Source: a virus
Taxonomy: Duplodnaviria; Heunggongvirae; Uroviricota; Caudoviricetes
DNA length: 16,991 nt
IMG/VR virus record: IMGVR_UViG_2703718832_000008
Coordinates: 1-16,991 of that record
Strand: one strand, 5' to 3'
Shown here piece after piece: positions 1 to 16,991 of the stretch. A program made the position numbers and the translations under genes. Position 1 is the stretch's first letter. Each line of letters starts with the position of its first letter. The notes under the pieces are model-generated. The model worked only from the letters and a program-made list of their open reading frames with translations. It was not told where the DNA came from and ran no database searches.

Positions 1-885
1 TTACTTTGCAATGAGATCGGGGTCAACTTCGCTAACCCGGCATCGTTTTGACCGGTTGCCCGTCTTTCTTTTTTTCACTTTCGCCAGTTCTTCCGCGGAG
101 TAATGCGACGCGACATCCAGCCGTCGAAGCCCCATTTTGATGTACTCGCTGTTGATCTCAATACCAATGAATTTTCGTCCGCTGGCGATGGCTACGGCAC
201 CGGTAGTAAAGCTACCGGCAAACGGGTCGAGAACGATATCGCCTGGGTTGGAAGAGGCGAGAATAATGCGTTTCAGTAAGGCTTCCGGTTTTTGCTTCGG
301 GTGGTTCTCATATTCATCCATTAAATAACGCACTCGCGGAAAATCCCAGACGTTACCCGGTACTTTTTGATGATTGTATGGCTGTGGAGGATTTTTGCGA
401 TAATCGATCAACGCGCGCTGCGATCCGGTTTTGGCTTCTACCAGAATAGCATCACCGTTGAATGTGTAGTTCTTTGCGTCTTTCACCATCATCAGGATGG
501 GTTCGTACATGGAGCCGTAGTGTTTTTTCGCCTGTACTCCAGAACTGTCATATGACCAGACGATGCGACTTTTGATGGTAAAAAGCTTGCGGCACTGGAG
601 ATCGATAAAGGGCATGTTTTCCGTACTGTTCATAATGTACATGCTGCCCTGCTTTTTCAGAACGCGGTGGCACTCTGCAATCACTTCAAACAGCCAGTCG
701 ATAAATAGATCTTCTTTCCAGGCTTCGATCAGACCATCAAAATTTTTACCGATGTTATACGGTGGGTCGGCAAAGATCAGATCGACGCTTTCAGTAGGTA
801 GCTTTTTAAGTTCGGCAAGGGCATCACCGTGAATAATGGTCTTAGCTTCATTACCAAACCGGGTCGGTTCACATCCTGTTCTCAT
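1..885 (-). CDS. yhdJ: DNA adenine (N6) methyltransferase YhdJ; complete, stop at window positions 1-3
   Basis: 294-aa ORF with the DPPY motif (FADPPYNIG) and a C-terminal FxGSFTTG S-adenosylmethionine-binding motif typical of N6-adenine/N4-cytosine methyltransferases; sequence matches my recollection of enterobacterial YhdJ. Start chosen at ATG 883-885 (MRTGCEP...) with AAGGGAG ribosome-binding site 6 nt upstream, rather than the GTG at 889-891 used by the ORF track. Confidence 0.9.
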   Translation of the reverse strand: MRTGCEPTRFGNEAKTIIHGDALAELKKLPTESVDLIFADPPYNIGKNFDGLIEAWKEDLFIDWLFEVIAECHRVLKKQGSMYIMNSTENMPFIDLQCRKLFTIKSRIVWSYDSSGVQAKKHYGSMYEPILMMVKDAKNYTFNGDAILVEAKTGSQRALIDYRKNPPQPYNHQKVPGNVWDFPRVRYLMDEYENHPKQKPEALLKRIILASSNPGDIVLDPFAGSFTTGAVAIASGRKFIGIEINSEYIKMGLRRLDVASHYSAEELAKVKKRKTGNRSKRCRVSEVDPDLIAK

Positions 886-909
886 GGTCACTCCCTTTGT
901 GACACCTAT

Positions 910-946
910 AAAAAAGGCGCTTCCCCATGCCGAGTAGCGCCTTTTT
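910..946 (-). terminator. Bidirectional intrinsic terminator hairpin (probable fis terminator)
   Basis: Perfect 11-bp inverted repeat AAAAAGGCGCT (911-921) / AGCGCCTTTTT (936-946) around a 14-nt loop, with an A-tract on one side and a T-tract on the other; lies just downstream of the fis stop-codon remnant when read on the minus strand. Confidence 0.7.
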
Positions 947-970
947 AATCAAGCATTTAGCTAACCTGAA

Positions 971-988
971 TTAGTTCATGCCGTACTG
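971..988 (-). other. fis: Remnant of the fis 3' end (Y-G-M-N-stop) marking the chromosome/island junction; putative attachment-site core
   Basis: Minus strand reads TGA CAG TAC GGC ATG AAC TAA. The last four codons plus stop match the Fis C-terminus (...KKYGMN) as I recall it, but an in-frame stop sits immediately upstream and the sequence beyond 988 is unrelated AT-rich DNA. Confidence 0.6.
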
Positions 989-1115
989 TCATATTAGCTG
1001 TTTTCATGCTTTTAGATGATTTTAATATTCATATAATAATCAATGTGTTGTATAAATTCATGCCTGTATATTGTTCCAGTGTTTTTCTTTGTTTATGCTA
1101 TTATGCAAGCAATTC

Positions 1116-1137
1116 TGTATAAACATTTGTATAAACA
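1116..1137 (+). repeat. Two direct copies of TGTATAAACA, 12-bp period, 20-40 bp upstream of int
   Basis: TGTATAAACA at 1116-1125 and 1128-1137 within the AT-rich int leader; possible integrase arm-type or regulator binding sites, or promoter elements. Confidence 0.35.
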
Positions 1138-1155
1138 CTTTGGGCTGGGTGGTCT

Positions 1156-2379
1156 ATGGCTGGCGAACTTAACAAACTGAGCGACAGGAAGTTAAAGGGA
1201 TTACATGGTATCCCGGCCAGTAAGATTGAGTTCTATGCTGATGGTGCCGGGCTGAGCGCCAAGGTAACGAAAGCTGGTGGTATTAGCTGGGTGTTTACTT
1301 ACCGACTCGACGGGCAGAAGCTGCATCGTCTTACTCTGGGACGATACCCGGATATGAGCCTCAAAGAAGCCCGTTCTTCGCGTGATAAATGCCGCCAATG
1401 GCTGGCCTCAGGTAAAGATCCAAAGCACCAGTTGGCGCTGGCCACTCAGGAAACGCTTAAACCGGTCACTGTTAAGGAAGCTATAGAATACTGGATACGC
1501 GAATATGCAGAAGAGAACCGCGCGAATGTTGAACGGCACAAAGCGGAGCTGCGAAAACACATTTATCCTTATATAGGGAAAATGGCGCTCGCTGACTGTG
1601 AAACACGATACTGGCTTGACTGCTTTGACAGGATGAAAAAGAAAACTCCAGTCGCCGCAGGTTATGTGTTCCAGATGTGCAAACAAGCCCTGAAATTCTG
1701 CCGGGTTCGTCGCTATGCTGTGAGTACCGCGCTTGAAGATTTAACAATTCCAGATGTCGGTAAAAAACAGGCAAAAAAAGACCGGGTATTAAACGATAAA
1801 GAGGCTGGCGATTTATGGGCTGCCATTTCCTCTGGCACTTGCTTCATGCCTTACTACACCAGGCTACTGACAATCTTAATGGTGTTTGGGTGCCGAACGC
1901 AGGAGGCCAGGCTATCAGAGTGGAGTGAATGGGATATGGATGCCTGGGTCTGGACAGTTCCCAAAGAGCACAGCAAGGGCGGCGAGAAGATTGTAAGACC
2001 TGTGCCGGATGCCATGCGCAAATTCATTGAAATACTGCATGATGAAACGAAACTATCCGGTCTTTTGCTTGGGTCGGTTAAAGGCAGTGAAGCGGTAAGC
2101 CAGTGGGGCCGTAGCGTTTATAAAAAGCTGGGACATTCTGAACCATGGACACTGCACGATCTAAGACGAACATTAGCAACGCATATGAATAATATGGGTA
2201 TAGCACCACACGTTGTTGAACAGTTGCTGGGGCACTCAATGCCGGGAGTCATGGCGATTTATAATCGCAGCCTGTACTTGCCTGAGAAACTGGATGCGCT
2301 GAATAAATGGTATGACCGTCTCGATATTTTGGCGGGTAATCACTCGAATATTGTTATTTTAAAGGCTGGTGAGAAATGA
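1156..2379 (+). CDS. int: Tyrosine site-specific integrase, P4-like family
   Basis: 407 aa; N-terminal arm-binding-like region, C-terminal catalytic region with HDLRRT and LLGHS...AIYNRSLY motifs (R..HxxR..Y catalytic pattern); GGGTGG ribosome-binding site upstream; placed at the island edge. Confidence 0.95.
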   Translation: MAGELNKLSDRKLKGLHGIPASKIEFYADGAGLSAKVTKAGGISWVFTYRLDGQKLHRLTLGRYPDMSLKEARSSRDKCRQWLASGKDPKHQLALATQETLKPVTVKEAIEYWIREYAEENRANVERHKAELRKHIYPYIGKMALADCETRYWLDCFDRMKKKTPVAAGYVFQMCKQALKFCRVRRYAVSTALEDLTIPDVGKKQAKKDRVLNDKEAGDLWAAISSGTCFMPYYTRLLTILMVFGCRTQEARLSEWSEWDMDAWVWTVPKEHSKGGEKIVRPVPDAMRKFIEILHDETKLSGLLLGSVKGSEAVSQWGRSVYKKLGHSEPWTLHDLRRTLATHMNNMGIAPHVVEQLLGHSMPGVMAIYNRSLYLPEKLDALNKWYDRLDILAGNHSNIVILKAGEK

Positions 2380-3164
2380 AAAAGATAAATAAAATGACCG
2401 ATTTGCCGAAATGGTTTTCATTGGACAATTACAATTCTATCAATGGGCTGAGTGATCTTGATTTAATTAATCAGTTAGCTATGAGAATGGAAGTTGCTAA
2501 TGATGATTTTGAATGGCTTGATACCTATCCCGGAGCAAGAAATGAGTTCGCTTCATTTATGGAAGAAAGATTTAGTAACCCAATTCGGCCGCTGAGCGGA
2601 AAATTATTTGCAGAAAAAATAAAAAGAAAAAAATATTCTGAATGGCAAATGGATTCCGTCGGAGGTGTTGAGCCTTTAAGATTAATTGATGTGATGCAGT
2701 TGTCTAAGAAAGCCGCTCATTATATTGATGAAAATAAAATTAATCGCTCATTGCGTGGACAAAAAAGGTCTGTAAGTAAGACCATAAGCGATAATGATCA
2801 AATGCACATTACTTTAGATTTGTCTTGGCCTGATGAAATTTTATTAAGCGATTTGGCTGCATTGTTGCCAATATGGCGAATGGATCTTGAAAGGAAAAGT
2901 GAAAATAGTTGTAAGTTAAGTAATAGCTGGAGTGTAATCAAAAAGAAAATATTCGATTACAAGATATTGCCAATGTTAGACCTTATGGAGTGGGCTAAAA
3001 TTAACAATGCAACAATCACTAACAGAGTTTTATCTTTGGCCCTATTTCCTAATGCAGAGTATGACGCCATTGGTATCGCTCAAACGATCAAACCGTTCAT
3101 TAGAAATTTTTCCGCAGATTTTTCTATAGAAATATTAAAGCGCAAAGCTATGGATTCATTTTAA
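2376..3164 (+). CDS. Hypothetical protein, AT-rich accessory gene translationally coupled to int
   Basis: 262-aa ORF whose ATG overlaps the int stop (ATGA). Visibly lower GC than the flanking genes, with several A-tracts. No recognisable catalytic motif by eye. Confidence 0.65.
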   Translation: MKKINKMTDLPKWFSLDNYNSINGLSDLDLINQLAMRMEVANDDFEWLDTYPGARNEFASFMEERFSNPIRPLSGKLFAEKIKRKKYSEWQMDSVGGVEPLRLIDVMQLSKKAAHYIDENKINRSLRGQKRSVSKTISDNDQMHITLDLSWPDEILLSDLAALLPIWRMDLERKSENSCKLSNSWSVIKKKIFDYKILPMLDLMEWAKINNATITNRVLSLALFPNAEYDAIGIAQTIKPFIRNFSADFSIEILKRKAMDSF

Positions 3165-3267
3165 TCGGGAAATCCATATAGAAATAATTAAAAATTATCT
3201 AATAGTGAACCATGCTTTTTAATAGCAAATAATAGCCTCCACAAAACGTAGAAACAGTGGAGGCAAC

Positions 3268-3552
3268 ATGCAAAATATCACCTTTACCCCGCCAAATCCT
3301 GAGCAGCGCCGCACCCTTTTAGAAGAGTACGGCTTTAAGTTCGACCGTCGAATTCGTGAAGAAGAATGTAGCGAGATCACCAGCCTTTCCCGTTCCAGCC
3401 GCTGGAAAATGGAGCAGCAAGGTCGATTCCCGCCACGCTGCCACTTTGGTCGTAACAGCTGCGCCTGGCTTCTTTCTGATGTGCTCTGGTGGGTTCGTAA
3501 TCCGCCTGCAGTAGAGAACGTCAATAACCCGTACAGCCGCAAATCTGCTTAA
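3268..3552 (+). CDS. alpA: AlpA-family phage transcriptional regulator (excisionase-like helix-turn-helix)
   Basis: 94 aa; region RIREEECSEITSLSRSSRWKMEQQGRFPPRCHFGRNSCAWLLSDVLWWV matches the AlpA/Vis-type helix-turn-helix as I recall it; GGAGG ribosome-binding site at 3259-3263. Confidence 0.88.
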   Translation: MQNITFTPPNPEQRRTLLEEYGFKFDRRIREEECSEITSLSRSSRWKMEQQGRFPPRCHFGRNSCAWLLSDVLWWVRNPPAVENVNNPYSRKSA

Positions 3553-3572
3553 TTAACTACAGGTAATAGAAT

Positions 3573-4379
3573 ATGGAAAAAATAACTGCCTTGGCTGGCA
3601 GCGGCCAAACTCAATCCGAAACCAGCCAGAAAGATATTTCCAGCGATAATTTTGCTGCGCGAATCCCTGTAACCATGAGCAAGATTGGCGGGAAAGAAAC
3701 CCAGTCTGTAAGCGGACGTAAGCTGCATACGTTTCTGGCTGTAGGGCGAGACTTTACCACCTGGATGAAAGCACGCATCAAACAGTATGGGTTTGTTAAA
3801 GGGGTTGATTATGTAATTGTTGAAGATTTGAGCACCCCAAAACGGGGGAGCGCAAAATCTCGCCAACAAGTCGAGCACGATTACATTGTTAGCCTGAATA
3901 TGGCTAAAGAGCTTTCTATGGTTGAGCGCAACGCGCAAGGCAAGATGGCCCGCCAGTATTTCATCGACTGTGAAGAACGTCTGCGCCGCGTAGCACCAGA
4001 GGAACATGAGGCGGCGTTGTTGGGCTGGCGTAAAAATCGTGTAGCTGCCTGCGAAGATCATAAGAGTATGGCCGATGCAATGAAGGGCTATATCGAGCGC
4101 ACCGGCGACAGGCAGCACGGCTTTGCCTACAGCAATGAATGCTCGTTCCTGAATAGCCTTGTGCTGGGTATGCACCCGCGAGTGTGGGCGAAACAGAAAG
4201 AAATCCCGGTTAAGCAGGTGCGTGACCATATGAACGCCGATCAGCTCGCGCTGCTGGCTTATCTGGAAAGCCGTGATTGTGCTCTGCTGGATCTTGATAC
4301 CCGTACAGCAACCCGTAAGGCGAAACTCACCGAACTGGCACAACGCTGGCTGGTGAAGCGTGTTGGAGGTGCTGAGTGA
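3573..4379 (+). CDS. Phage antirepressor-like protein (AntA/AntB N-terminal domain)
   Basis: 268 aa; segment SGRKLHTFLAVGRDFTTWMKARIKQYGFVKGVDYV fits the AntA-domain pattern (LH.FL.V...F..W...RI..YGF..G.DY). Only 20 bp downstream of alpA, so probably co-transcribed. The start could instead be the internal Met at about 3675. Confidence 0.7.
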   Translation: MEKITALAGSGQTQSETSQKDISSDNFAARIPVTMSKIGGKETQSVSGRKLHTFLAVGRDFTTWMKARIKQYGFVKGVDYVIVEDLSTPKRGSAKSRQQVEHDYIVSLNMAKELSMVERNAQGKMARQYFIDCEERLRRVAPEEHEAALLGWRKNRVAACEDHKSMADAMKGYIERTGDRQHGFAYSNECSFLNSLVLGMHPRVWAKQKEIPVKQVRDHMNADQLALLAYLESRDCALLDLDTRTATRKAKLTELAQRWLVKRVGGAE

Positions 4380-4539
4380 TTTTGCATAACTCAATCAGGG
4401 TTGCGCAGAATTTGAGCAGGCGAAATTCGCACGCGCAAATCAAGCTCGGTGATATGCCGAGTTTGAACAACCGCGTACGTTTAACGTACGGACATCGCAA
4501 CCCATTGAATCAATTTGATTATAACGAACCGTTAGAATT

Positions 4540-4730
4540 GGCGAGCAACAAACACGAACAGTATTCGGGTTCGCCTGAACATCAACACTGCTTAGGTTCG
4601 GCAATCATCTTTAAAGGATGTATCAAGGAAAATCAACAACGTGCAGTTGAGGTTCCAACGAATAACGTAGAGAGCTGCAATGGCAGCGCATTTTTGCTCT
4701 ACGAGGGAAATCAACAACGTACAGTTTTGT
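4540..4730. repeat. Four degenerate direct repeats (~30 bp units, consensus roughly ATCAACAACGTGCAGTTGAGGTTC) in a noncoding region
   Basis: Related units start near 4547, 4581, 4631 and 4710; the two best copies are AAATCAACAACGTGCAGTT (4629-4647) and AAATCAACAACGTACAGTT (4708-4726). Two CGTACG palindromes lie just upstream at 4472-4488. No convincing ORF on either strand. Confidence 0.5.
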
Positions 4731-4860
4731 ACCGTAATCCAAATTTGGCTTACGAGAGGGTAGTACCTCAAAGCCACCAGGTTAACCACGCCGCCAAAAG
4801 ATATGCGGAAAACAAACCCTCTTTAAGAGGGGGAGTCCAGCGTTTGTGCGGGTCATTATG

Positions 4861-4892
4861 TCCTGCGCAAAACAACCCCGAAATTATCGGGG
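4861..4892 (-). terminator. Intrinsic terminator for the minus-strand RHH gene
   Basis: 6-bp stem CCCCGA/TCGGGG with 5-nt loop (4876-4892), followed on the minus strand by TTGTTTTG; sits about 30 nt downstream of the RHH stop. Confidence 0.55.
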
Positions 4893-4923
4893 CAGTCCAC
4901 AGCATTACGGGGAGTAACCCTGT

Positions 4924-5115
4924 TCAGCCTTTTGGCTCGATGCCTTGTCGCAAAAGTTCTTTACGGGCAAGAGCCTTTAGCCAATTGCCAAGGCTCACGC
5001 CTTCCCGGCTGGCAGCCTCATTTAGCTGCTGGCGTAGTTCGGGTGTTATGCGGATCTGGAAGGTCGGTGACAAACCTTCACCTTTCGGAGTTTTATCTCT
5101 TTTGATAGTTGACAT
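4924..5115 (-). CDS. Small ribbon-helix-helix (Arc/CopG-like) DNA-binding protein, putative island regulator
   Basis: 63 aa starting at the internal ATG (5113-5115) with an AGGAG ribosome-binding site upstream on the minus strand; segment FQIRITPELRQQLNEAASREGVSLGNWLKALARKEL has the beta-strand/helix-helix pattern of RHH proteins. The N-terminal extension to 5229 in the ORF track looks non-coding. Confidence 0.6.
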   Translation of the reverse strand: MSTIKRDKTPKGEGLSPTFQIRITPELRQQLNEAASREGVSLGNWLKALARKELLRQGIEPKG

Positions 5116-5163
5116 GTACGTACGTAATCTCCTACTATGGATTCTGTTATGTACGTACGTTAT
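5114..5163. promoter_or_regulatory. Two 15-bp operator-like palindromic sites ATGTACGTACGT[A/T]AT in a divergent control region
   Basis: Copies at 5114-5128 and 5149-5163, centres 35 bp apart; the first contains the perfect 10-bp palindrome TACGTACGTA. They lie between the divergently oriented RHH gene and the HNH-AP2/primase operon. Confidence 0.5.
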
Positions 5164-5444
5164 CACGGCGCATGTAACAAAAGCAACGCCCCGGAGTGCG
5201 GGAACACTGCCGAGGCGTCTAACCACCAACGTTAATAGGAGTAACGCTATGGCTATGCCGCAGTGTAACCAAACTCATCCTAAAAATCGCGTATTTATCT
5301 TTTTGGCTTTAAATCGTGCCGACATGCAGAGCAGGCCACATCGTGAAGTTATTACCGCCGTCAGTGAGCGGGAAGCACGTAAGCTGCTAGTTGGCCGTTT
5401 TATTTTGGTTTTTGCAGGACGCTTACCAGCCAAGGAGATTTATC

Positions 5445-5954
5445 ATGGCTAAATTAACCAATAAATATTTAAAAGAAATTTTAGAATACAGCCCAGAATC
5501 TGGGGTGTTTATTTGGAAAGTTTGTCGTGGTACTACAAAGGCAGGGGATATAGCTGGCAGTATCAAAGTAAGAGGGTATTTAGATATTAAGATTAATAAG
5601 AAGCTATATAAGGCTCATAGGCTCGCATGGTTTTATATGTATGGAGTTTGGCCCGCTAATCTAATTGACCATATTAATGGTAATCGCAGTGATAATCGGT
5701 TGTGTAACTTGCGAGAGGCCACTCACAAAGAAAATTGCAGAAATCAAAGGATGTATAAAAATAACAAGTCAGGAGTAAAGGGAGTTAACTGGAATAAAAC
5801 AGGAAGAAAATGGCTGGCTGCGTGTGCTGTTGACGGGAAAAGATATCACCTAGGAATGTTTGAAGATATTTCAGAAGCAGAGAAAACTATTAAAGATTTT
5901 CGTGAGAAATATCATGGGGAATTCGCCAAGCATGAAGTGACCGGGGAGTTATAA
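5445..5954 (+). CDS. HNH endonuclease with C-terminal AP2 DNA-binding domain (homing-endonuclease-like)
   Basis: 169 aa from ATG 5445 (AAGGAG ribosome-binding site 7 nt upstream). HNH_3-type motif HRLAWFYMYGVWPANLIDHINGNRSDNRLCNLREAT, then AP2-like SGVKGVNWNKTGRKWLAACAVDGKRYHLGMFEDISEAEKT. Visibly AT-rich compared with downstream genes. Confidence 0.8.
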   Translation: MAKLTNKYLKEILEYSPESGVFIWKVCRGTTKAGDIAGSIKVRGYLDIKINKKLYKAHRLAWFYMYGVWPANLIDHINGNRSDNRLCNLREATHKENCRNQRMYKNNKSGVKGVNWNKTGRKWLAACAVDGKRYHLGMFEDISEAEKTIKDFREKYHGEFAKHEVTGEL

Positions 5955-5955
5955 A

Positions 5956-6150
5956 ATGCGTGAGCCAATCTGTCTGGAGCAGGCCGAATATAAATCAGCG
6001 CTGGCTTCATCACTTTACGAAACCATCCTGGAAAAAGCCTCTGCTGAATGTTCAGAAACGCTGCTGAATCTGATTTCTATTGCGTGTGATTTTAATCAGG
6101 AAATTCACCGGGCATTAATCGCCGAGCTGCACATGGGAGAGACAAAATGA
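5956..6150 (+). CDS. Hypothetical small protein (64 aa)
   Basis: ATG immediately after the upstream stop, with GGGGAG ribosome-binding site; first of three tightly coupled small ORFs leading into the primase gene. Confidence 0.5.
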   Translation: MREPICLEQAEYKSALASSLYETILEKASAECSETLLNLISIACDFNQEIHRALIAELHMGETK

Positions 6151-6353
6151 GACAGGTTCCTTTTGAGGTCCTGATGCACGCCGAAGACGCACTGGCATAC
6201 AGCAATCAGGCTCTGGCTATGCTGGAAATCTGGATGGACTCCCTCGGCGAAGGTGATGAACACGAATCTAACTGTGTGGCCGCCATTTTCAGCCTGGTGC
6301 ATGAGTCCAAAGATCGTCTACAGAAAGCGCGGGAGGCTTCCAGTGCAAAATGA
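6147..6353 (+). CDS. Hypothetical small acidic protein (68 aa)
   Basis: ATGA start/stop overlap with the previous ORF; GGGAGAG ribosome-binding site. Confidence 0.5.
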   Translation: MRQVPFEVLMHAEDALAYSNQALAMLEIWMDSLGEGDEHESNCVAAIFSLVHESKDRLQKAREASSAK

Positions 6354-6597
6354 CTTTGTAAGCGATGCGCGGCACGGGAAGCGCGGAGAGTTCAAATTGC
6401 CGCTGTTTTGTGAACTGACTGCAGAAGGGCAGAGTCACATCACCTTTGCCCTAAAGTTTGCCCCCGAGTCTGTGGCTGTGTTCCATCCCGATTCGGGAGA
6501 AATATCTCACTGGCTCAGCCGCGGAAACGAGATTATCGACATTTACGGTTGCTATGCCGTCTTTCCTCGCAATGGCATTAGGGAGGAACAGCAATGA
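6343..6597 (+). CDS. Hypothetical small protein (84 aa, GTG start)
   Basis: GTG at 6343 preceded by GGGAGG 6 nt upstream; overlaps the previous stop and ends in an ATGA overlap with the primase start. The ORF-track start at 6253 would run inside the previous gene and has no ribosome-binding site. Confidence 0.45.
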   Translation: MQNDFVSDARHGKRGEFKLPLFCELTAEGQSHITFALKFAPESVAVFHPDSGEISHWLSRGNEIIDIYGCYAVFPRNGIREEQQ

Positions 6598-9284
6598 GCC
6601 GCGCAATTGAGATTATCCGTGAAGTTAAGCGCCGAGCTGCCGGAAGCTGGGAAAGCCTACTTCCTCAGTGCGGGGTGACGGTTCCGCCGAAAGGCCGTCA
6701 CGGCCCATGCGCCATCTGTGGTGGATCTGACCGATTTCACTACATTGACGACCACGGCGGCGGCGAGTGGCATTGTCGCCAGTGTGACGAGCCAAATCAC
6801 GGCGACGGTCTGGATCTCATTGCCAGATCTCAGGGCATTACCATAACCGCTGCGGCGCAGAAAGTATCCTCTGTGCTGGGTGTTGATGCCCGGACACCGG
6901 AACCGAAGCCAGCCAGAGAGAAGCCTCAGACGGATATCGCCGGGAAAGTTGCGGCGCTGGTTGCTAAAGCCTCTCCGGGGCAGTCTGCTTACCTTGCATC
7001 AAAGGGGCTTCAATGCCCCTTCCCGATGCTGTCCGATGGGTCGCTGCTGCTGGTGCTGAAAAACGGTGCTGGCGCGACGACAGGCGCACAGGTGATTAAG
7101 CCAGATGGCAGTAAGCGGCTGGTGGCCGGAACGGTAAAGAAAGGCTCTTTTTGCGTGGTTAATTCCGGTGAAACGCCGGAGACGGTGATTATCGCCGAAG
7201 GACTGGCAACGGCGCTTTCGGTTCAGCAGTTTCGCCCAGATGCGACAATTATCACAGCGATTGACGCCGGGAATTTGCTGTCAGTTGCGCAGGTGATGCG
7301 ACAGCGTTACCCGGATGCGCAGATCATCATCGCCGCAGATAACGATATTAAGCCTGGCGAACCAAACACGGGTAAATCAGCCGCAGAAAAAACCGCTAAA
7401 GCTGTCTCTGGCTGGGTAGCTTTACCTCAGTCTGAGGAAAAGGCCGACTGGAATGATTTTCACCAGCAACACGGGCTGGAAGCAGCCGCAGCAGCATTTA
7501 ATGATTCGATGTACCAGCCGGAGGGCGAAAAGGTGGTGGTAAAACTTAAGTCTATTGACGGCGGTAAAAAAGAGCAAAAATCAGCTCTGCAAGGTGACGA
7601 ACTGAAACCACGCGTGGAGAGCCGTAACGATGGCTTGTACTGGATTACGCCAAAGGTGGACAAGGACAGCGGAGAAATCATCAATAACGAAGCGTGGCTT
7701 TGTTCGCCTCTTGAGGTAGTTGGTTCAGGTAGTGACGGGGCAGAACGCTATCTTGTTTTGCGCTGGCGTTCGCCGCGTGGCCACGAAGATATTACCAGGG
7801 CGATCCCTTGCGCTGATGTTGGAGAGCGTGAGGGATGGCGCTCACTTAAAGCTGGAGGGGTTAACGTGACCACTAAAAACACCTTTCGTGCCATTCTGGC
7901 CGATTGGCTGCAGCAGTGTGGATCTGGTCAGGAATGGATTATCACTCATACCACTGGCTGGCATAATGGGGCATATATCATGCCTGATGGCGAAGTTATT
8001 GGTGATCCAGAGACACCCATTCTCTTTAATGGTCGCAGCGCTGCATCTTCCGGTTATGCCGTTTCTGGTACGGCTGAGGGCTGGCGGGATTCAGTGGCTT
8101 ATCTGGCCGGTGGCAACCCATCAATGATGCTGGGAGTGGCGGCGGCATTATCCGCGCCGCTTATTGGGCTGGTGGGTGCTGATGGTTTCGGTGTCCACTT
8201 GTTCGAGCAGTCGAGCGCCGGTAAGACCACTACAGCTAATATTGCGAGCAGTCTGTGGGGAGAGCCGGATGCTCTGCGCCTAACGTGGTACGGTACTGCG
8301 CTTGGTATCGCTAACGAAGCGGAGGCGCATAACGACAGTCTGTTACCGCTGGATGAAGTGGGGCAGGGGAGCAGCGCCAAAGACGTTGCCACTTCGGCAT
8401 ACACCTTGTTTAACGGTGCTGGAAAGCTGCAGGGAGCCAAAGAGGGCGGCAATCGGGAGTTGAAACGTTGGCGCACTGTAGCAATCAGTACCGGGGAAAT
8501 GGATATCGAGACGTTTCTTTCTGCTGGTGGGCTAAAAGTTAAGGCAGGCCAGTTGGTTCGCCTGCTGAATATCCCTATGGAGAAATCGACGGCCTTTCAT
8601 GGCCTGCAGAACGGCAAGGCTCATGCTGATGCACTGAAGCAGGCATGGATTGAAAATCACGGTGCAGCGGGCCGAGAGTGGGTTAAATGGTTGGCGGCTC
8701 ACCAGAAGGAAGCTAAACAGGCCGTACATGACGCCCAGACGCGCTGGCGCGGACTCATTCCGGCTGATTATGGCGAGCAGGTGCACCGCGTGGCAGAACG
8801 CTTTGCAATCCTTGAAGCTGCGCTGGTGACTGGTGCATCAATCACCGGATGGGATGAACAGGCCAGCCGTGATGCTATCCAGCATAGCTTTAATGCCTGG
8901 GTGAAAGAGTTCGGAACGGGAAATAAAGAGCACCAGCAGATCATCGAGCAGTGCGAGGCGTTTCTTAATGCTTATGGTCTGAGCCGGTTCGCCCCTTTGC
9001 CTTATGATCCTGCAAGCCTGCCAATCAGTAATCTTGCCGGGTATCGTAAGCGTAAGAGCAACCATGATGATGCGCCCATGGTGTTCTATACATTCCCTGC
9101 AACGTTTGAGAAGGAGATAGCGCAGGGATTTAATGCTAGGCAGTTTGCCCGTGCGCTTGCCGCTGCCGGTTTGCTCTCTGAGCCATCAAGTGGGAGAGGA
9201 TATCAACAGAAATCACCGCGAATTGATGGGCGCCAAATCAACGTTTATGTACTTCAACAAGTTGCAGAAGAAGGGGCGGAATAA
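6594..9284 (+). CDS. Primase-helicase (zinc-ribbon + TOPRIM primase + P-loop NTPase domains)
   Basis: 896 aa. N-terminal Cys/His cluster (CAICGG...HCRQC); TOPRIM-like IIAEGLATALS and IIAADND; Walker A SSAGKTT and Walker B-like LLPLDEV in the C-terminal half. Sits immediately upstream of the iteron origin. Confidence 0.9.
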   Translation: MSRAIEIIREVKRRAAGSWESLLPQCGVTVPPKGRHGPCAICGGSDRFHYIDDHGGGEWHCRQCDEPNHGDGLDLIARSQGITITAAAQKVSSVLGVDARTPEPKPAREKPQTDIAGKVAALVAKASPGQSAYLASKGLQCPFPMLSDGSLLLVLKNGAGATTGAQVIKPDGSKRLVAGTVKKGSFCVVNSGETPETVIIAEGLATALSVQQFRPDATIITAIDAGNLLSVAQVMRQRYPDAQIIIAADNDIKPGEPNTGKSAAEKTAKAVSGWVALPQSEEKADWNDFHQQHGLEAAAAAFNDSMYQPEGEKVVVKLKSIDGGKKEQKSALQGDELKPRVESRNDGLYWITPKVDKDSGEIINNEAWLCSPLEVVGSGSDGAERYLVLRWRSPRGHEDITRAIPCADVGEREGWRSLKAGGVNVTTKNTFRAILADWLQQCGSGQEWIITHTTGWHNGAYIMPDGEVIGDPETPILFNGRSAASSGYAVSGTAEGWRDSVAYLAGGNPSMMLGVAAALSAPLIGLVGADGFGVHLFEQSSAGKTTTANIASSLWGEPDALRLTWYGTALGIANEAEAHNDSLLPLDEVGQGSSAKDVATSAYTLFNGAGKLQGAKEGGNRELKRWRTVAISTGEMDIETFLSAGGLKVKAGQLVRLLNIPMEKSTAFHGLQNGKAHADALKQAWIENHGAAGREWVKWLAAHQKEAKQAVHDAQTRWRGLIPADYGEQVHRVAERFAILEAALVTGASITGWDEQASRDAIQHSFNAWVKEFGTGNKEHQQIIEQCEAFLNAYGLSRFAPLPYDPASLPISNLAGYRKRKSNHDDAPMVFYTFPATFEKEIAQGFNARQFARALAAAGLLSEPSSGRGYQQKSPRIDGRQINVYVLQQVAEEGAE

Positions 9285-9308
9285 AATACACATGTGAGGA
9301 TTGTTATT

Positions 9309-9601: not shown

Positions 9602-9638
9602 ATAGTTTTGCATCTATACACAAAAAATAGAGGATGTT

Positions 9639-9941: not shown

Positions 9942-9978
9942 TTTTGTAAATTATTTGTACTCATGTTTACCCGTGATT

Positions 9979-10003
9979 ACCCCTGTCTCTGATGGGGGTT
10001 TTC
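9979..10003 (+). terminator. Weak intrinsic terminator candidate
   Basis: CCCC/GGGG stem with 10-nt loop followed by TTTTCTTT, about 40 nt after the preceding stop codon. Confidence 0.3.
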
Positions 10004-10173: not shown

Positions 10174-11340
10174 ATGAAGAAACTACTCGAATTACGCCAG
10201 CAGAAAGCCGCACTCAAAACACAGATGCGTTCCATGCTGGACAAAGCCGACACCGAAAAGCGCAGCCTGAACGAAGAAGAGGGCAAAAAGTTCGACGAAC
10301 TCCGCGCCCAGGCTGATGCGCTTGAAGTTGAAATCACCCGCCTTGAAGCCGTCGCCGACGATCAGCGCAATCTGCCTGGTACTTCCGTCGAAGGTGAGCC
10401 AGTAAGCAACGACGAGCTGCGCCACTACATCATGACAGGTGATACCCGTTCTCTCTCCACGCTGGTGCAGGCTGACGGCGGTTATACCGTTATCCCTGAG
10501 CTGGACAAAGAGATTATGCGCCAGTTGCAGGATGATAGCGTGATGCGTTCCATCGCAACGGTGAAGACCACCAAAACCAACGAATACCAGAAGCTGGTAT
10601 CTGTGGGCGGCACTACTGTTAATCGTGGTACCGAAGGTGAGGCACGTACCGAAACCAGTACGCCGAAGATGGAGCGCGTTGATATCAAACTCAACCCGAT
10701 CTACGCCTACCCGAAAACCACTCAGGAGATTCTCGACTTCTCTGAGGTGGACATTCTGGGCTGGCTGTCTTCTGAAATCGCCGACACCTTCACCGCTACC
10801 GAAGAGAGCGACTTTGTGAACGGCGACGGTGATAAAAAATCCAAAGGGTTCCTGTCTTACCCTCGCGCTGTCACTGCCGACAAAACCCGTCCGTTCGGTA
10901 CGCTGGAGAAGATGGAGGCGGCTGACGTTTCCTCTGATGGCCTGATCGACCTGCTGTATAAGCTGAAAGCCAAATACCGCAAAAACGCCGTATGGGTGAT
11001 GAACTCCAACACCGCCGCCAAACTGCAAAAGCTGAAAAACGGCAACGGAGATTACATCTGGCGCGATCGTCTGGTTGCCGGTTCTCCCGATACGCTGCTG
11101 GGCCGTCCTGTTCAGTATCTGGAAACCATGCCGGATGCGGATGCAGGTAAAGCGTTCCTCGCGGTAGGCGACTTCAAGCGCGGCTATTTCATCGTGGATC
11201 ACACCACTGGCGTGCGTACCCGTCCTGACAACATCACCGAACCGGGTTTCTACAAGGTGCATACCGATAAGTACCTGGGCGGCGGTGTGGTGGACTCCAA
11301 CGCCATCAAGGTGCTTGAGCTTTCAGGCTCCGGTTCCTGA
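10174..11340 (+). CDS. Major capsid protein, HK97 fold, with N-terminal coiled-coil (delta/scaffold-like) domain
   Basis: 388 aa; N-terminal roughly 100 residues are charged and coiled-coil-like, the remainder resembles HK97-family major capsid proteins; the long antisense ORF 10192..11262 is a shadow. Confidence 0.92.
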   Translation: MKKLLELRQQKAALKTQMRSMLDKADTEKRSLNEEEGKKFDELRAQADALEVEITRLEAVADDQRNLPGTSVEGEPVSNDELRHYIMTGDTRSLSTLVQADGGYTVIPELDKEIMRQLQDDSVMRSIATVKTTKTNEYQKLVSVGGTTVNRGTEGEARTETSTPKMERVDIKLNPIYAYPKTTQEILDFSEVDILGWLSSEIADTFTATEESDFVNGDGDKKSKGFLSYPRAVTADKTRPFGTLEKMEAADVSSDGLIDLLYKLKAKYRKNAVWVMNSNTAAKLQKLKNGNGDYIWRDRLVAGSPDTLLGRPVQYLETMPDADAGKAFLAVGDFKRGYFIVDHTTGVRTRPDNITEPGFYKVHTDKYLGGGVVDSNAIKVLELSGSGS

Positions 11341-11350
11341 TTTGACGTTT

Positions 11351-11372
11351 AAGGGGCTGCGGCCCCTTTTTG
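11351..11372 (+). terminator. Intrinsic terminator/attenuator immediately after the capsid gene
   Basis: GC-rich hairpin AAGGGGC-TGCG-GCCCCTT followed by a T-run, 10 nt after the capsid stop and 20 nt before the protease start. Confidence 0.6.
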
Positions 11373-11391
11373 CCCTCTGTGGAGTCCAGTA

Positions 11392-11952
11392 ATGAAAACA
11401 ATTGATTTTGAAATCCGTACTTCCGAAGTGAGCGCCAGCAACAAAAAGCTGGTGGGCTATGCCGTGCGCTGGAACAGCCTGTCAGAAGTTATCTGGGATG
11501 AGTTCCGCGAACAGTTTGCGCCGGGAGCGTTTAAAGACAGCCTGGCATCCGGTAGCGATGTGCGTGCGCTGTATGAGCATAACTATACCCAGCTGCTGGG
11601 CCGCACTAAATCCGGCACGCTGGTGCTGTCCGAAGACGATACCGGGCTGCGCTTCGAGCTGACTCCGCCGAATACCCAGCTTGGCAACGATGTGCTGGAG
11701 CTGGTGGAGCGCGGGGATATCTCCGGCATGAGCTTTGGTTTCCGGGCGCTGAAAGAGGCGTGGGATATTGCTCAGTCTCCATATCTGCGCACTGTTACCG
11801 CTGCCGAACTGCGGGAGATTACCGTTACCTCTATGCCTGCTTATCCTGAGTCTGGCGTGGAAATCGCGCACCGTTCGCTTTTCTCCCAACATCCTGAACT
11901 GCGCCGCGCTGGCGATAACCGTCGCCGCTGGGCTGATTTAGCGGGGCTCTGA
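11392..11952 (+). CDS. Prohead protease, HK97 family
   Basis: 186 aa; resembles HK97-family prohead proteases (segments ALYEHN...LLGRT and LRFEL); GGAG ribosome-binding site. Confidence 0.9.
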   Translation: MKTIDFEIRTSEVSASNKKLVGYAVRWNSLSEVIWDEFREQFAPGAFKDSLASGSDVRALYEHNYTQLLGRTKSGTLVLSEDDTGLRFELTPPNTQLGNDVLELVERGDISGMSFGFRALKEAWDIAQSPYLRTVTAAELREITVTSMPAYPESGVEIAHRSLFSQHPELRRAGDNRRRWADLAGL

Positions 11953-11953
11953 T

Positions 11954-13189
11954 ATGTGGAATATCTGGCCGTTTGGCCGTAAGTCTGAACCCTCAGAGCA
12001 GCGCAGCATGACCATTGATGAATTTCTGGCGATGGCAGGGATTCCAAATACCGGATCAGGCGAGTATGTGTCTGCGGGTACTGCGGAATCTCTGCCGGCG
12101 GTCATGAACGCCGTATCAGTTATCAGTGAGGCGGTGGCAACAATGCCCTGCTATCTCTACCGCGTCCGTAATGATAATGGTCGTGAGGCGCGAGAATGGC
12201 TGAGTAATCACCCGGTGGATTTTCTCCTGAACGAGCAGCCGAACGACTGCCAGACGCCTTATCAGTTTAAACGCACGATGATGCGCCATTGTCTGCTGAA
12301 TGGTAACGCCTATGCGGTGATCCAGTGGGGCCGCGACGGCCAGCCGCAATCCCTGCACCCGTATGCGCCGGGGGCGGTTGTTCCTGAGCGTATCGGCCAG
12401 CATAAGTACAAATACACCGTTACAGAGCCGTTTACCGGGGCTGTGCGCACCTATCTACAGGAAGAGATTCTGCACCTGCGTTACTCCACCGATGATGGCT
12501 TTCTGGGGCGTTCGCCTATTACTACGTGCCGTGAGGCGCTGGGGTTAGGTCTGGCCCAACAGCGCCACGGTGCCAGCATTATGAAAGATGGCATGATGGC
12601 GGCGGGCGTCGTCACTACTGCTGAATGGCTCGACAGCGTGAAGGGTAAGCAGGCTCTGGACGCACTGGAGCGCTACAAAGGTGCCAGAAATGCCGGGAAA
12701 ACGCCGATCCTTGAAGGTGGCATGGACTACAAGCAGCTTGGCATGAGCAATCAGGATGCCGAATGGCTGGCGTCGCGCCGGTTCTCCATTGAAGACATTG
12801 CCCGCATGTTCAACGTGTCGCCCATCTTCCTGCAGGAATACAGCAACAGCACCTACAGCAATTTCAGCGAAGCGAGCCGCGCCTTTCTCACCATGACCAT
12901 GCGCCCGTGGCTGGCGAACTTCGAGCAACAAATCAAATCTGCTTTGCTGGTGGCCTCTCCGGTTCCGGGAACCCGTTATCAGGTGGAGTTTGACTCTGCT
13001 GACCTTCTCCGTGCCACACCTACCGAGCGTTACGCCACTTATGAGCGAGGCATTAAGAACGGGATCATGAACCCGAACGAAGCCCGTGAGCGCGAGGGGA
13101 TGCCGCCGCGTGAAGGTGGTGACGAATTCAGCCAGGCATGGAAGCAGGAAGTGAAGATCAGCAAAGACGGCAAGGAAGGTGACGCATGA
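11954..13189 (+). CDS. Portal protein, HK97 family
   Basis: 411 aa; start 1 nt after the protease stop; size and sequence character consistent with HK97-type portal proteins. Confidence 0.9.
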   Translation: MWNIWPFGRKSEPSEQRSMTIDEFLAMAGIPNTGSGEYVSAGTAESLPAVMNAVSVISEAVATMPCYLYRVRNDNGREAREWLSNHPVDFLLNEQPNDCQTPYQFKRTMMRHCLLNGNAYAVIQWGRDGQPQSLHPYAPGAVVPERIGQHKYKYTVTEPFTGAVRTYLQEEILHLRYSTDDGFLGRSPITTCREALGLGLAQQRHGASIMKDGMMAAGVVTTAEWLDSVKGKQALDALERYKGARNAGKTPILEGGMDYKQLGMSNQDAEWLASRRFSIEDIARMFNVSPIFLQEYSNSTYSNFSEASRAFLTMTMRPWLANFEQQIKSALLVASPVPGTRYQVEFDSADLLRATPTERYATYERGIKNGIMNPNEAREREGMPPREGGDEFSQAWKQEVKISKDGKEGDA

Positions 13190-13524
13190 GAGCCGGGGGG
13201 CTGAGAAGCCGCGTCACTATTCGGGTATTCACTACCCACAGGGAGCCGTCCGGTCAGGTTGTTCAGGTCTGGGAAGACGGGGAAACCATATGGGCTGAGG
13301 TTAAGGGGATCAGTGGCCGAGAGTTAATGGCGTCAGGTGCCGAGGTTGCCGAAGCGACGATCCGCGTTTGGGTGCGTTTCCGCCGTGATATTACCGCAGC
13401 CAACCGTCTGAAAGTGCTTACTGGCCCGTTTGCTGGCAGCACTCTCAATATTATCGGGCCTCCTATTCCTGATTCGGAAGGTACCCGGCTGGAAATTCTC
13501 TGCAAGACAGGAACGGAAAAATGA
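13186..13524 (+). CDS. Head closure / head-tail adaptor protein
   Basis: 112 aa; ATGA overlap with the portal gene; resembles phage head-closure proteins and sits in the expected head-completion position. Confidence 0.75.
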   Translation: MRAGGLRSRVTIRVFTTHREPSGQVVQVWEDGETIWAEVKGISGRELMASGAEVAEATIRVWVRFRRDITAANRLKVLTGPFAGSTLNIIGPPIPDSEGTRLEILCKTGTEK

Positions 13525-13814
13525 CAGCAGAAATCACCCTGGAAGAAGCAAAGCTGCATTGCCGTATTGATGATGATTATGAAGACACGCTGATACAGGC
13601 GTACATCGATGCGGCGCTGGAGGTTTGCCAGAAGCATATCGGCAAGCGGTTTGATAACGGGCTGGAGTTTACGCCAGCTATCAAGATTGGCTGTCTGATG
13701 TACGTATCTCAGCTGTACGAGTACCGCACGATGATTGGTGATACCGACGCCAAAGAGATACCGATGGCTGTCTCTGCGTTGTGGTCTGTCTATCGTGATG
13801 TGGGGGTGTACTGA
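13521..13814 (+). CDS. gp6-like head-tail connector protein
   Basis: 97 aa; N-terminus ITLEEAKLHCRIDDDYEDTLIQAYIDAA is the usual signature of gp6-like connector proteins; ATGA overlap upstream. Confidence 0.85.
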   Translation: MTAEITLEEAKLHCRIDDDYEDTLIQAYIDAALEVCQKHIGKRFDNGLEFTPAIKIGCLMYVSQLYEYRTMIGDTDAKEIPMAVSALWSVYRDVGVY

Positions 13815-14257
13815 TGCCGTGGCAACCACTACGCCGGTGCAATGAGCCGGGATGTAATAAACGGGTGAAGTCTGGCAAGTGTGACGAGCATAAGCGGGAT
13901 GCCCGCCGACAAAGCGACAGCCGAAGAGGTACGCGAACAGAGCGTGGTTACTCCAACCGCTGGGGCGAATACCGTCGTCATTTTCTAAAAGCTAATCCGC
14001 TGTGTGTCCATTGTCTCAAGGCTGGCGTCTATGCATCGGCAACTATCGTCGATCACATCATCCCTATCGAGGGTGAAGCTGATGTGCTGTTCTGGCCCGC
14101 CAGTAATCACCAGTCGTTATGCGCTGCCTGTCATGGACGGAAGACAACCACAACAGACCCGGTGACGAAGCAGCAGCGTAAAGCCGGTAAGTTCCGCGAG
14201 CAGGAAGAAGCAGCACGTCATCGCACCGACTGGATCTATGAGGCAAACAATGACTGA
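13814..14257 (+). CDS. HNH endonuclease associated with the terminase
   Basis: 147 aa; Cys-rich N-terminus, HNH motif DHIIPIEGEAD...NHQSLCAACH; located directly upstream of terS as in cos-type HK97-like packaging modules. Confidence 0.9.
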   Translation: MPWQPLRRCNEPGCNKRVKSGKCDEHKRDARRQSDSRRGTRTERGYSNRWGEYRRHFLKANPLCVHCLKAGVYASATIVDHIIPIEGEADVLFWPASNHQSLCAACHGRKTTTTDPVTKQQRKAGKFREQEEAARHRTDWIYEANND

Positions 14258-14402
14258 GCAGGAACAGCAGCGGCTGATTAGTGGGCTGATAAAGCAGCGC
14301 GAGGCATGGCAACCAGCCAGACAGAGAGCGCATAAGAAGCCCGTAGCAAAGCGCATGAGCCAGCGTGACCGGGAGCTTATGGAATGCTTTCGCAACCGCT
14401 GA
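14250..14402 (+). CDS. Possible small basic protein (50 aa); uncertain
   Basis: ATG overlaps the HNH stop by 8 nt; the ORF is below the length cut-off of the supplied track; product is Q/R/K-rich; no supporting motif. Confidence 0.3.
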   Translation: MTEQEQQRLISGLIKQREAWQPARQRAHKKPVAKRMSQRDRELMECFRNR

Positions 14403-14409
14403 CAGGCCG

Positions 14410-14530
14410 AATGGACGGGGTGGGGGAGGTTTTCAGGACAAACCCCTCTCAGCGAGGAACCACCCGCCCCCTCAAATTTTTACGCACGGTGATTTTTTTG
14501 AAAATAAAACAGACAGGAAAACAGTAAGTT
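14410..14530. other. Candidate cos / packaging-recognition region between HNH and terS
   Basis: GC-rich G-tract GGGGTGGGGGAGG (14417-14429) and C-tract CCACCCGCCCCCTC (14460-14473) with partial dyad symmetry, followed by T-runs; cos-type phages with HNH-TerS-TerL place cos here. Confidence 0.4.
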
Positions 14531-14887
14531 ATGGCAAGACCACCCAAACCGCCCGCCTACCTTGATGAAATCGCGGCGCAGCAGTGGAAAGCAAAGGCGA
14601 AGCAGCTGGCGGAGCGCGGTGATCTGACGCCTGCCGACTGGAACAACCTTGAGCTGTATTGCGTCAATTACTCGATGTACCGCAAAGCCGTGGAAGACCT
14701 TGCCACGCGGGGATTCAGCATAGTGAACAGCCAGGGCGGTGAGAGCCGTAACCCGGCACTGAGCGCAAAAGCGGATGCCGAAAAAATTCTCATAAAAATG
14801 TCGTCGCTGCTGGGCTTTGATCCGGTAAGCCGCCGCCGTAATCCGGTAGAAACGGAAGAGGAGGACGAGCTTGACCGTCTGGAATGA
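14531..14887 (+). CDS. terS: Terminase small subunit, P27 family
   Basis: 118 aa; N-terminus MARPPKPPAYLDEIAAQQWK and overall size match P27-family small terminases. Confidence 0.85.
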   Translation: MARPPKPPAYLDEIAAQQWKAKAKQLAERGDLTPADWNNLELYCVNYSMYRKAVEDLATRGFSIVNSQGGESRNPALSAKADAEKILIKMSSLLGFDPVSRRRNPVETEEEDELDRLE

Positions 14888-16532
14888 TTACGCAAACGCC
14901 ATTAAATCGGGTGAAATTCCGGCCTGTAAGCGCGTAAAACAGGCCGTCGAGAGGTACTTTTCAGACCTGAATGACCCCCGTTATGAGTTCGATACGGCGA
15001 CCGTGGAGCGGTTTATTGCCTTCTCCCGGCTCTGCCCACACGTCAAAGGCCCGCTTAGGGGCCAGCCAATAGAGCTGGAACCGTGGCAGCAGTTCGCCTT
15101 TGCTAACCTGCTGGGCTTTAAGGTCAGGGAGTCAGGCCGCCGTAAGTACAGCAGCGCCTTTATTGAGGTGCCGCGCAAGAACGCCAAATCAACCGTAGCC
15201 GCCATGCTGGCTAACTGGTTTCTGGTAATGGAGAAGGGCCAGCAGGATATCTACACGGCGGCGGTAAGCCGGGATCAGGCCCGAATCGTGTTCGACGATG
15301 CCCGCCAGATGTGCCTGCTGTCAAAACCGCTGAAAAAGCGCGTCAATATCCAGGCGCATAAGGTCATTTTTCCGAAGAGCAACAGCCTGTTAAAGCCGCT
15401 GGCGGCGAAAGCGGCCACCATTGAAGGGACTAACCCCAGCCTGGCGATTGTCGATGAATACCACCTTCACCCGGATAACGGCGTTTATTCCGCCCTCGAG
15501 CTGGGTATGGGCGCACGTCCGGAGGCGATTTTGTTCGCTATCACTACCGCCGGGAGTAACGTTGTCTCTGCCTGTAAGCAGCATTATGACTACTGCTGTC
15601 AGATTCTGGCCGGGGAGGAGGGCAACGATTCGCTGTTTGTACTGATCTACGAGCTGGACGACGAAAGCGAGGTTGAGCAGCCTGAAATGTGGATCAAGGC
15701 TAACCCTAACCTGCATGTGTCCGTTGACGCAGCGAAACTAGAATCCACTATCCAGAAAGCCCGGGGTATACCGTCGCAGTGGGTGGAAATGCTGACCAAG
15801 CGTTTCAATATCTGGTGTCAGGGCTCCACTCCGTGGATGGGAGCCGGCGCATGGGATGCCTGTGCGCTCGAATATACCGAAGAAGATCTGTCCGGGATGG
15901 AGTGTTACGCCGGATTTGACCTGTCCTCAACCAGCGATATTACCAGTGTGAGTTACGCTTTCCCGTTTGAACGCGAGATCAGGCTTCTTACCCGGCACTA
16001 TCTGCCCGAAGCACAACTACTTAACGTTGCTAACAAAAACCGCGCCATCTATCGGCAGTGGGTAAAAGCGGGCTGGATACGCACCACCCCCGGCGACTGT
16101 ATTGACTATGATCGCATCCGTGACGATATCCTGCGCGACGCTGAAATATTCAATATCCGGCTGGTGGGCTTTGATACGTGGAACGCGACACACTTGCGAA
16201 CCCAGTTACAGGGGGCTGGCCTCGATGTGGAGCCGTTCCCGCAAACCTATCTGAAATTCAGTCCGGTAGCGAAATCTTTTGAGGTTTTTGTTAACCGCAA
16301 GGTGGTGCGCCATCGTGGCGATCCGGTTCTGGCCTGGGCGATTGGTAACGTGGTGATGGAGTCCGATGCCAACGCCAATATCAAACCTAACAAAAAGAAA
16401 TCCTCCAACAAGATAGACCCGGCGGTTTCTGCACTCATGGCGTTCGGCACATTCCTGGCAGAACACGAAGATTTTGCTTTCGATATGAGCGACAGTCACA
16501 AAGAGCGACTGGCTTTATTTAATGGGATTTGA
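14871..16532 (+). CDS. terL: Terminase large subunit
   Basis: 553 aa; ATPase P-loop-like PRKNAKST, nuclease-like C-terminal half; apparent TTG start at 14871 with GAGGAGGA ribosome-binding site, overlapping the terS 3' end by 17 nt. Confidence 0.92.
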   Translation: MTVWNDYANAIKSGEIPACKRVKQAVERYFSDLNDPRYEFDTATVERFIAFSRLCPHVKGPLRGQPIELEPWQQFAFANLLGFKVRESGRRKYSSAFIEVPRKNAKSTVAAMLANWFLVMEKGQQDIYTAAVSRDQARIVFDDARQMCLLSKPLKKRVNIQAHKVIFPKSNSLLKPLAAKAATIEGTNPSLAIVDEYHLHPDNGVYSALELGMGARPEAILFAITTAGSNVVSACKQHYDYCCQILAGEEGNDSLFVLIYELDDESEVEQPEMWIKANPNLHVSVDAAKLESTIQKARGIPSQWVEMLTKRFNIWCQGSTPWMGAGAWDACALEYTEEDLSGMECYAGFDLSSTSDITSVSYAFPFEREIRLLTRHYLPEAQLLNVANKNRAIYRQWVKAGWIRTTPGDCIDYDRIRDDILRDAEIFNIRLVGFDTWNATHLRTQLQGAGLDVEPFPQTYLKFSPVAKSFEVFVNRKVVRHRGDPVLAWAIGNVVMESDANANIKPNKKKSSNKIDPAVSALMAFGTFLAEHEDFAFDMSDSHKERLALFNGI

Positions 16533-16682: not shown

Positions 16683-16991
16683 ATGACTGATAAATGGGCT
16701 GATTACCTTATTTCTAAAGTCCGATATAACGATAAACACACTCACATTACCCATGTGTATGTGCATGTCGATAATGGCGATACTGTTGGAGAAGGGACAT
16801 CAGAAACACGGCAGTGGGTAGTGAATAAAATCGATAGCGGCTATACCTTTTACACCATTTTCAAAGGTGATGACGGTAAGTGGAAGAAAGGTCAAAAAGT
16901 GGTTAAGGACCGTGTCAACGGTACTGATTACATTACTACTAGACCTAATGGTACATCCAAGGATAACTTAGAAAACCTTCCTGAGTACTAA
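16683..16991 (+). CDS. DUF3892 domain protein; AT-rich accessory gene
   Basis: 102 aa; sequence character matches the DUF3892 family as I recall it; stop codon is the last three bases of the window; preceded by a 150-bp AT-rich spacer. Confidence 0.7.
   Translation: MTDKWADYLISKVRYNDKHTHITHVYVHVDNGDTVGEGTSETRQWVVNKIDSGYTFYTIFKGDDGKWKKGQKVVKDRVNGTDYITTRPNGTSKDNLENLPEY

Follow-up and report, generated by a model that had tools for sequence, protein, structure and literature searches.

Positions 892-988 of the DNA analyzed here very probably represent the attL junction of a capsid-forming phage-inducible chromosomal island (cf-PICI), a phage satellite, that has inserted in the last 13 bases of fis. 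Throughout this text, the window means the whole analyzed stretch, i.e. the 16,991 nucleotides at positions 1 to 16,991 of the virus record IMGVR_UViG_2703718832_000008. The arrangement proposed in the initial annotation of the sequence is correct, common and already published. The window adds one more satellite to a well-documented hotspot, and the insertion is built in a way that keeps the Fis protein intact. The only new element is the pattern of candidate arm-type sites close to the junction, a modest and testable refinement that hints at how different satellites share one target. The features of the window are collected in Table 1.

Table 1. Features of the junction and of the island in the window
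Feature	Position	Strand	Basis
yhdJ, adenine-specific DNA methyltransferase; chromosomal, normally just 3' of fis	1..885	-	99.6% identity to annotated yhdJ of OW1E2
yhdJ ribosome-binding site AGGGAG (putative function)	891..896	-	direct read, 5 nt before ATG 885-883
Native fis rho-independent terminator, stays on the yhdJ side after insertion	910..946	-	fold; same as K-12 sequence downstream of fis
fis relic, last four codons and stop, TAC GGC ATG AAC TAA	971..985	-	direct read; Fis ends KKYGMN
Attachment-site core, 13-bp identity block TACGGCATGAACT	973..985	-	alignment of window, K-12, OW1E2 attL and attR
attL island arm (P arm) and region upstream of int	986..1155	+	K-12 similarity absent; conserved in int relatives of other genera
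Doubled motif TGTATAAAC-ATT-TGTATAAAC, 12-bp period	1116..1136	+	candidate arm-type integrase binding sites
Tyrosine integrase, N-terminal arm-binding domain	1156..2379	+	Pfam Arm-DNA-bind_3 5e-19, Phage_integrase 2e-17
DUF6387 protein	2376-3164
AlpA-type regulator/excisionase, PICI signature gene	3268..3552	+	Pfam Phage_AlpA 3.9e-10
AntA-type antirepressor	3573-4379
HNH_3/AP2 endonuclease, homing-type	5391-5954
Primase-helicase, replication module	6594..9284	+	Pfam Zn_Ribbon_Prim, Toprim_3, DUF927
Capsid/packaging module	10174..16532	+	Pfam 1e-11 to 2e-96, HNH 7.5e-07; all above Pfam cut-offs
DUF3892 gene, last of the island	16683..16991	+	Pfam DUF3892

The junction at the 3' end of fis

Direct reading of the minus strand gives, 5' of the fis relic, a TGA (991-989) and a CAG (988-986), which are followed by the codons for Y-G-M-N (985-974) and the stop codon TAA (973-971). 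The whole order noted before, stop-Q-Y-G-M-N-stop, then a hairpin terminator, then the ribosome-binding site and start codon of yhdJ (ATG, 885-883), was confirmed by this reading. Two background statements of the initial annotation are also right: K-12 Fis ends with KKYGMN, and the K-12 gene order is fis-yhdJ with fis situated 85 bp upstream of yhdJ.

The stem of the native fis terminator is a perfect duplex of 11 bp, in which AAAAAGGCGCU (946-936) pairs with AGCGCCUUUUU (921-911), and there is an extra T at 910; the hairpin loop comprises 14 nt with a small inner stem inside. The fold of 96 nt has a z-score of -3.8 at -29.4 kcal/mol, a stability that not one of 200 shuffled sequences attained. 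A simple promoter and terminator scan of positions 800-1300 gave nothing exceeding the shuffle expectation and did not call the fis terminator, because its hairpin loop is longer than 8 nt; the fold was used in its place. Composed of an A-tract, the hairpin and a T-tract, the terminator is symmetric, and its sequence makes it potentially bidirectional. No tRNA was found by the tRNA scan, hence the site is not tRNA-associated. Similarly, the Rfam search at gathering thresholds gave no match in the window, hence no known RNA is present in the fis 3' region or in the island.

Alignment of the window to the empty fis-yhdJ site of K-12 revealed unbroken identity through 985, which is lost exactly at 985/986. 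The proposed insertion of an island at the fis 3' end is borne out by these data, since the match with the empty site does not go past the end of fis and the integrase gene starts 171 bp further inward (1156). The boundary needs to be shifted, however, because island DNA had been placed beyond 988, whereas chromosomal identity ends at 985 and the CAG at 986-988 already belongs to the island. Annotations should place the boundary of the island at 985/986 and should not list the five-codon fis remnant as a gene. A chance resemblance of the relic to the fis end is ruled out by the continuous flanking identity ending exactly at the published core.

The core was defined by aligning the window with the empty site of K-12 and with the left and right ends of the OW1E2 island. 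TACGGCATGAACT is the sole block common to attB, attL and attR and matches the published block, such that the suggested overlap of the attachment core with the fis 3' end proved right; strand exchange must be confined to these 13 bp. A duplication of the core had also been predicted. This is true for the 13-mer TACGGCATGAACT, whereas the exact 15-mer TTAGTTCATGCCGTA is not duplicated because the stop codon at attR is TGA.

The uninterrupted fis-yhdJ junction is present in 5309 of 5426 complete E. coli genomes, and the site is occupied in about 2%. When positions 1-1400 of the window were compared with the same genomes, the yhdJ side was matched in 5424 of 5426, and only 19 genomes match past ~990. 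The integrase type of the window occurs at the fis site in 19 complete E. coli genomes, and a second integrase type was found at the same site in 48.

Gene content and class of the island

Island DNA past 985 makes up ~16 kb of the window, which corresponds to ~16 kb for the whole island in relatives. Pfam and PHROG scans of the window ORFs were used for gene calling. The module at 10174-16532 codes for the major capsid protein, the prohead protease, the portal, head completion and head-tail connector proteins, an HNH protein, TerS and TerL; the same scans found no tail genes in 986-16991. The island is assigned to the cf-PICI class because its gene set comprises int, AlpA, primase, capsid, protease, portal, connectors, HNH, TerS and TerL without tails. 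On the gene level, it thus has the int, alpA and replication genes together with the absence of tail genes by which a cf-PICI is recognized. It also bears the marks of a fis PICI, i.e. the core TACGGCATGAACT(AA) at the fis 3' terminus, an adjoining tyrosine integrase, and AlpA without tail signatures.

The HK97-type capsid, portal, protease and terminase proteins would also be encoded if the inserted element were a complete or decaying temperate prophage and not a satellite. We regard this as very improbable, because a tail, lysis or repressor-switch module is absent from the integrase to the last island gene, the element bears the AlpA signature, and the whole island comprises only ~16 kb in relatives. 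Moreover, not a single prophage was among the 3565 fis islands reported (PMC10111431), and the gene set is exactly that described for cf-PICIs (10.1101/2022.09.08.507074).

The early region between 3573 and 6597 is a mosaic, which in addition to the genes in Table 1 harbors a protein of 358 aa, whose sole match is repressor-like and confined to the C-terminus, and small ORFs that were recognized by PHROG only. The search with PADLOC among the cargo ORFs gave no convincing defence system. An ORF of 356 aa runs antisense to the major capsid gene (10192-11262, minus strand) and is most likely a spurious mechanical ORF. When the entire window was used as query, not one complete E. coli genome covered at least 80% of it, hence this exact mosaic island is without a fully matching reference.

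The far end of the island and the restored fis gene

The window does not extend past the stop codon of DUF3892, the final gene of the island. It therefore ends short of attR, and we infer attR and fis of this strain from relatives, to which we turned for the far end because of the lack of a complete E. coli genome with the coverage given above. In locus L004, the last gene matches the window to the final base; there, the DUF3892 gene (19090-19398) and fis (19556-19852) are separated by a gap of 158 bp. In OW1E2 and 873.10, the DUF3892 gene is likewise the last of the island and is followed by intact fis and dusB. Altogether, intact fis was found just beyond the last island gene in three of three inspected genomes with related islands (OW1E2, 873.10, SCU-125). 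The initial annotation had foreseen that fis would be intact at the opposite boundary, with its 3' end provided by the island, which is true for these three relatives.

At attR of the relatives, fis reads ...AAA AAA TAC GGC ATG AAC TGA; the next element is a terminator copy that differs from the fis terminator by three mismatches in a block of 41 bases, after which the sequence continues as island DNA. Hence, the last codons, the TGA stop and the terminator of fis are supplied by the island in the related E. coli genomes. Since the supplied codons are the same, the Fis protein is unchanged; alignment showed 100% identity to K-12 Fis in OW1E2, 873.10 and WCHEC035148, all with occupied site. By analogy, a second core copy, AGTTCATGCCGTA, followed by intact fis and dusB would be expected beyond 16991. 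The right end is predicted to consist of a co-oriented TGTATAAAC doublet, the terminator and (T/C)CAGTTCATGCCGTA leading into intact fis and dusB.

These findings bear on another reading of the junction, according to which the body of fis was lost via deletion or rearrangement and the five-codon remnant marks a strain without functional fis. The window taken alone would permit it, because TACGGCATGAACT is present once and the remnant is seen with neither fis nor a second copy of the core. However, the break lies, to the single base, at the published att core and is directly adjoined by the integrase gene, and the window stops at the end of that gene past which OW1E2, 873.10 and SCU-125 have intact fis. 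A loss of fis is therefore highly unlikely.

The symmetric terminator at attR faces the late operon of the island, which converges on fis, and it may end both transcripts. The idea in the initial annotation that the insertion may matter for fis expression is speculative; both the coding sequence and a terminator are restored. The island-supplied fis terminator resembles the native enterobacterial fis terminator (L002 37100-37230; L004 19495-19570; L030 1250-1330; compare L006 ~1270-1350), and the one supplied by the SCU-125 island is nearly the same as that native to Enterobacter hormaechei. The sequence similarity suggests that the attP arm might have been captured from, or adapted to, another genus.

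Integration model and comparison with known systems

The attL junction of a fis-inserted cf-PICI can be combined with the published families to a model, in which we infer the recombination mechanism, the induction and the hijacking of tails from these families. Judged from the sequence, the tyrosine integrase of the island would recombine attP with the chromosomal attB inside TACGGCATGAACT. Because of this recombination within the core, the final four codons of the original fis, its TAA stop and the native terminator would be left stranded beside yhdJ as a non-functional relic. At attR, ~16 kb away, fis would run through the core into the island, where it would find the same codons, a TGA and the terminator of the island. 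The integrase is likely to link the core to arm-type sites at 147 bp on the int side (1116-1136) and at ~86 bp on the other arm, and AlpA probably sets the direction towards excision. Upon induction by a helper phage, the island might be excised, replicated and packaged in its own small capsids, with phage tails being borrowed.

Several of these steps have been documented for similar elements. A survey of 3565 fis genomic islands, named "fis PICIs", reported an identity block with the consensus TACGGCATGAACTAA, which reaches into the rho-independent terminator, and found yhdJ across the island from fis (PMC10111431, NAR Genom Bioinform 2023). In the same study, excision of Kpn47.16.fis was seen by experiment. 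The window agrees with the fis PICIs in the target gene, the TACGGCATGAACT block, the position of int by attL, AlpA, the restoration of fis at the far end and yhdJ on the opposite side. Nothing essential is different; the window has an equivalent doubled motif of another sequence. The analogous doubled motif was reported only from helper-embedded PICIs, 81 and 132 bp from the core, and is absent from the attPs of fis PICIs (PMC10111431).

The gene set and life cycle of cf-PICIs have been described as well (10.1101/2022.09.08.507074). The prototype EcCIEDL933 shares with the window the order int-alpA-replication, genes for its own capsid, protease, portal, connectors, HNH, TerS and TerL, the absence of tails and a size of ~15-16 kb. 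In contrast to the prototype, the early region of the window is a mosaic (DUF6387, AntA-type antirepressor, HNH_3/AP2 endonuclease, DUF927 primase). Integration at the fis end was also shown by PCR for a Vibrio satellite, PICMI (PMC10803314). The PICMIs of Vibrionaceae resemble the window in the fis-end integration, a short flanking direct repeat and the core genes int, alpA and prim; however, they are only ~6 kb in size, are without capsid or packaging genes and reside in Vibrionaceae hosts, whereas the island of the window has ~16 kb and a full module.

A doubled motif as candidate arm-type site

The only two exact copies of TGTATAAAC in the window, compared with an expectation of 0.13, form the doublet ~20 bp upstream of the int start codon. 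The same doublet is found co-oriented on the other arm, ~86 bp from the core centre (L002 37140-37160, L004 19468-19488). The island in SCU-125, a cf-PICI and the third type at the fis site of E. coli, has doublets at L029 3616-3636 and L030 1229-1249. In three types of E. coli island, one lineage-specific motif is thus shared by both arms.

The motif was followed in relatives of the integrase. All 20 integrase relatives with 64-97% identity (L006-L025), which come from at least 12 named Enterobacterales genera and one unclassified Enterobacteriaceae MAG, adjoin the fis-end core and terminator. A doublet with a period of 12 bp is perfect (9 of 9 positions) in 19 of 25 loci, compared with 0.02% of control windows. 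Nearly all lineages at the fis site keep the centre of the doublet at 147.5 +/- 1 bp from that of the core, whatever the motif sequence, with L005, L014 and L020 as outliers and L025 as a locus in which the scan missed the motif. In contrast to this fixed spacing to the core, the distance to the int ATG is variable in the 25 loci (171-195 bp).

The sequence of the motif differs between lineages. TGTATAAAC is shared by the window, L006-L012 and L014-L016, GTGGGGTA is found in L013, L019-L021 and L025, and GTGTAGTC in L017, L018, L022 and L024; GTGCAGTCA belongs to SCU-125 (L029, L030), GTGTATCAC to L023 and GTTGTCA to E. coli WCHEC035148 (L001, L005). The published motif of helper-embedded PICIs, TGTATTGC, is present in L026 and L027, where the integrases are 46-47% identical and the fis core is missing. 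A search in E. coli for the integrase module of the GTGGGGTA type gave only weak matches to the type already known.

The motif classes are mirrored by the N-terminus of the integrase. In residues 1-96, integrases with the same motif are at least 67% identical and those with different motifs at most 66%, with zero overlap, whereas the rest of the protein fails to separate the classes (same-motif pairs down to 62%, different-motif pairs up to 96%). A clear case is provided by two Proteus loci, L015 and L025, whose int genes have 96.9% nucleotide identity from about residue 61 on and whose AlpA proteins are two residues apart, while the motif was replaced jointly with Int residues 1-60. It should be considered that the motif adjoins the int 5' end, and linkage contributes to the co-variation of motif and integrase. 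Taken together, this pattern indicates that the doubled motif is probably an arm-type site read by the N-terminal domain of Int. As in the lambda-type attP, the integrase has an N-terminal arm-binding domain and short repeated sites are present on both arms at fixed core distances; different from lambda, the candidate sites are tandem doublets with a 12-bp period, co-oriented on both arms.

Alternatively, the doubled motif at 1116-1136 could be an operator through which AlpA or a different regulator controls the int promoter, and its location just upstream of the int start codon would suit this role; AlpA or an unknown protein was regarded as possible binder of the analogous motif in helper-embedded PICIs (PMC10111431). 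We consider an operator unlikely, because the spacing is fixed relative to the core and not to the int ATG, and the motif changed jointly with Int residues 1-60 in the Proteus pair despite nearly identical AlpA.

Starting from arm-type sites, we tentatively propose that the fis-end integrases might combine one chromosomal core with at least six arm-site specificities (TGTATAAAC, GTGGGGTA, GTGTAGTC, GTGCAGTCA, GTGTATCAC, GTTGTCA) by swapping a cassette composed of the doubled motif and the first ~60-96 Int residues, a possibility to which we give somewhat less than even chances. If true, satellites that compete for, or reside in tandem at, the single fis site would be mutually orthogonal for integration and excision. 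In that case, it would be the arm domain of Int, and not AlpA, that reads the doubled motif left unassigned in the published survey (PMC10111431).

The integrase of the window is 97% identical to those of Enterobacter hormaechei and Klebsiella pneumoniae ATCC 13883 (L006, L007). Such a high sequence identity across genera would fit the reported spread of cf-PICIs between genera. The second integrase type at the E. coli fis site is represented by WCHEC035148 (L005 1-9640), where the island comprises 9.3 kb, the integrase is 54% identical to that of the window, and a different terminator is supplied; this island also encodes a VapE-domain protein, and one of its genes bears the annotation tape measure. 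In SCU-125, extra genes are located between TerL and fis (L029 16401-18873 / L030 89-1147); the product of one bears the annotation tail assembly protein, and another, which directly adjoins attR, belongs to an abortive-infection family.

Two further observations concern the surroundings of the doublet. The box CTGTATATTGTTCCAGTG in the P arm (1064-1081, plus strand) is kept in motif types A and B across many genera and not in the other types; it could serve for binding of a host factor or of Xis, or could be part of a promoter. Finally, the Xenorhabdus loci L019 and L020 have a TGTATAAAC doublet and a terminator ~330-200 bp upstream of int, across the core in DNA presumed to be chromosomal. 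This arrangement resembles the right arm of a further fis island and may thus point to tandem or remnant satellites.
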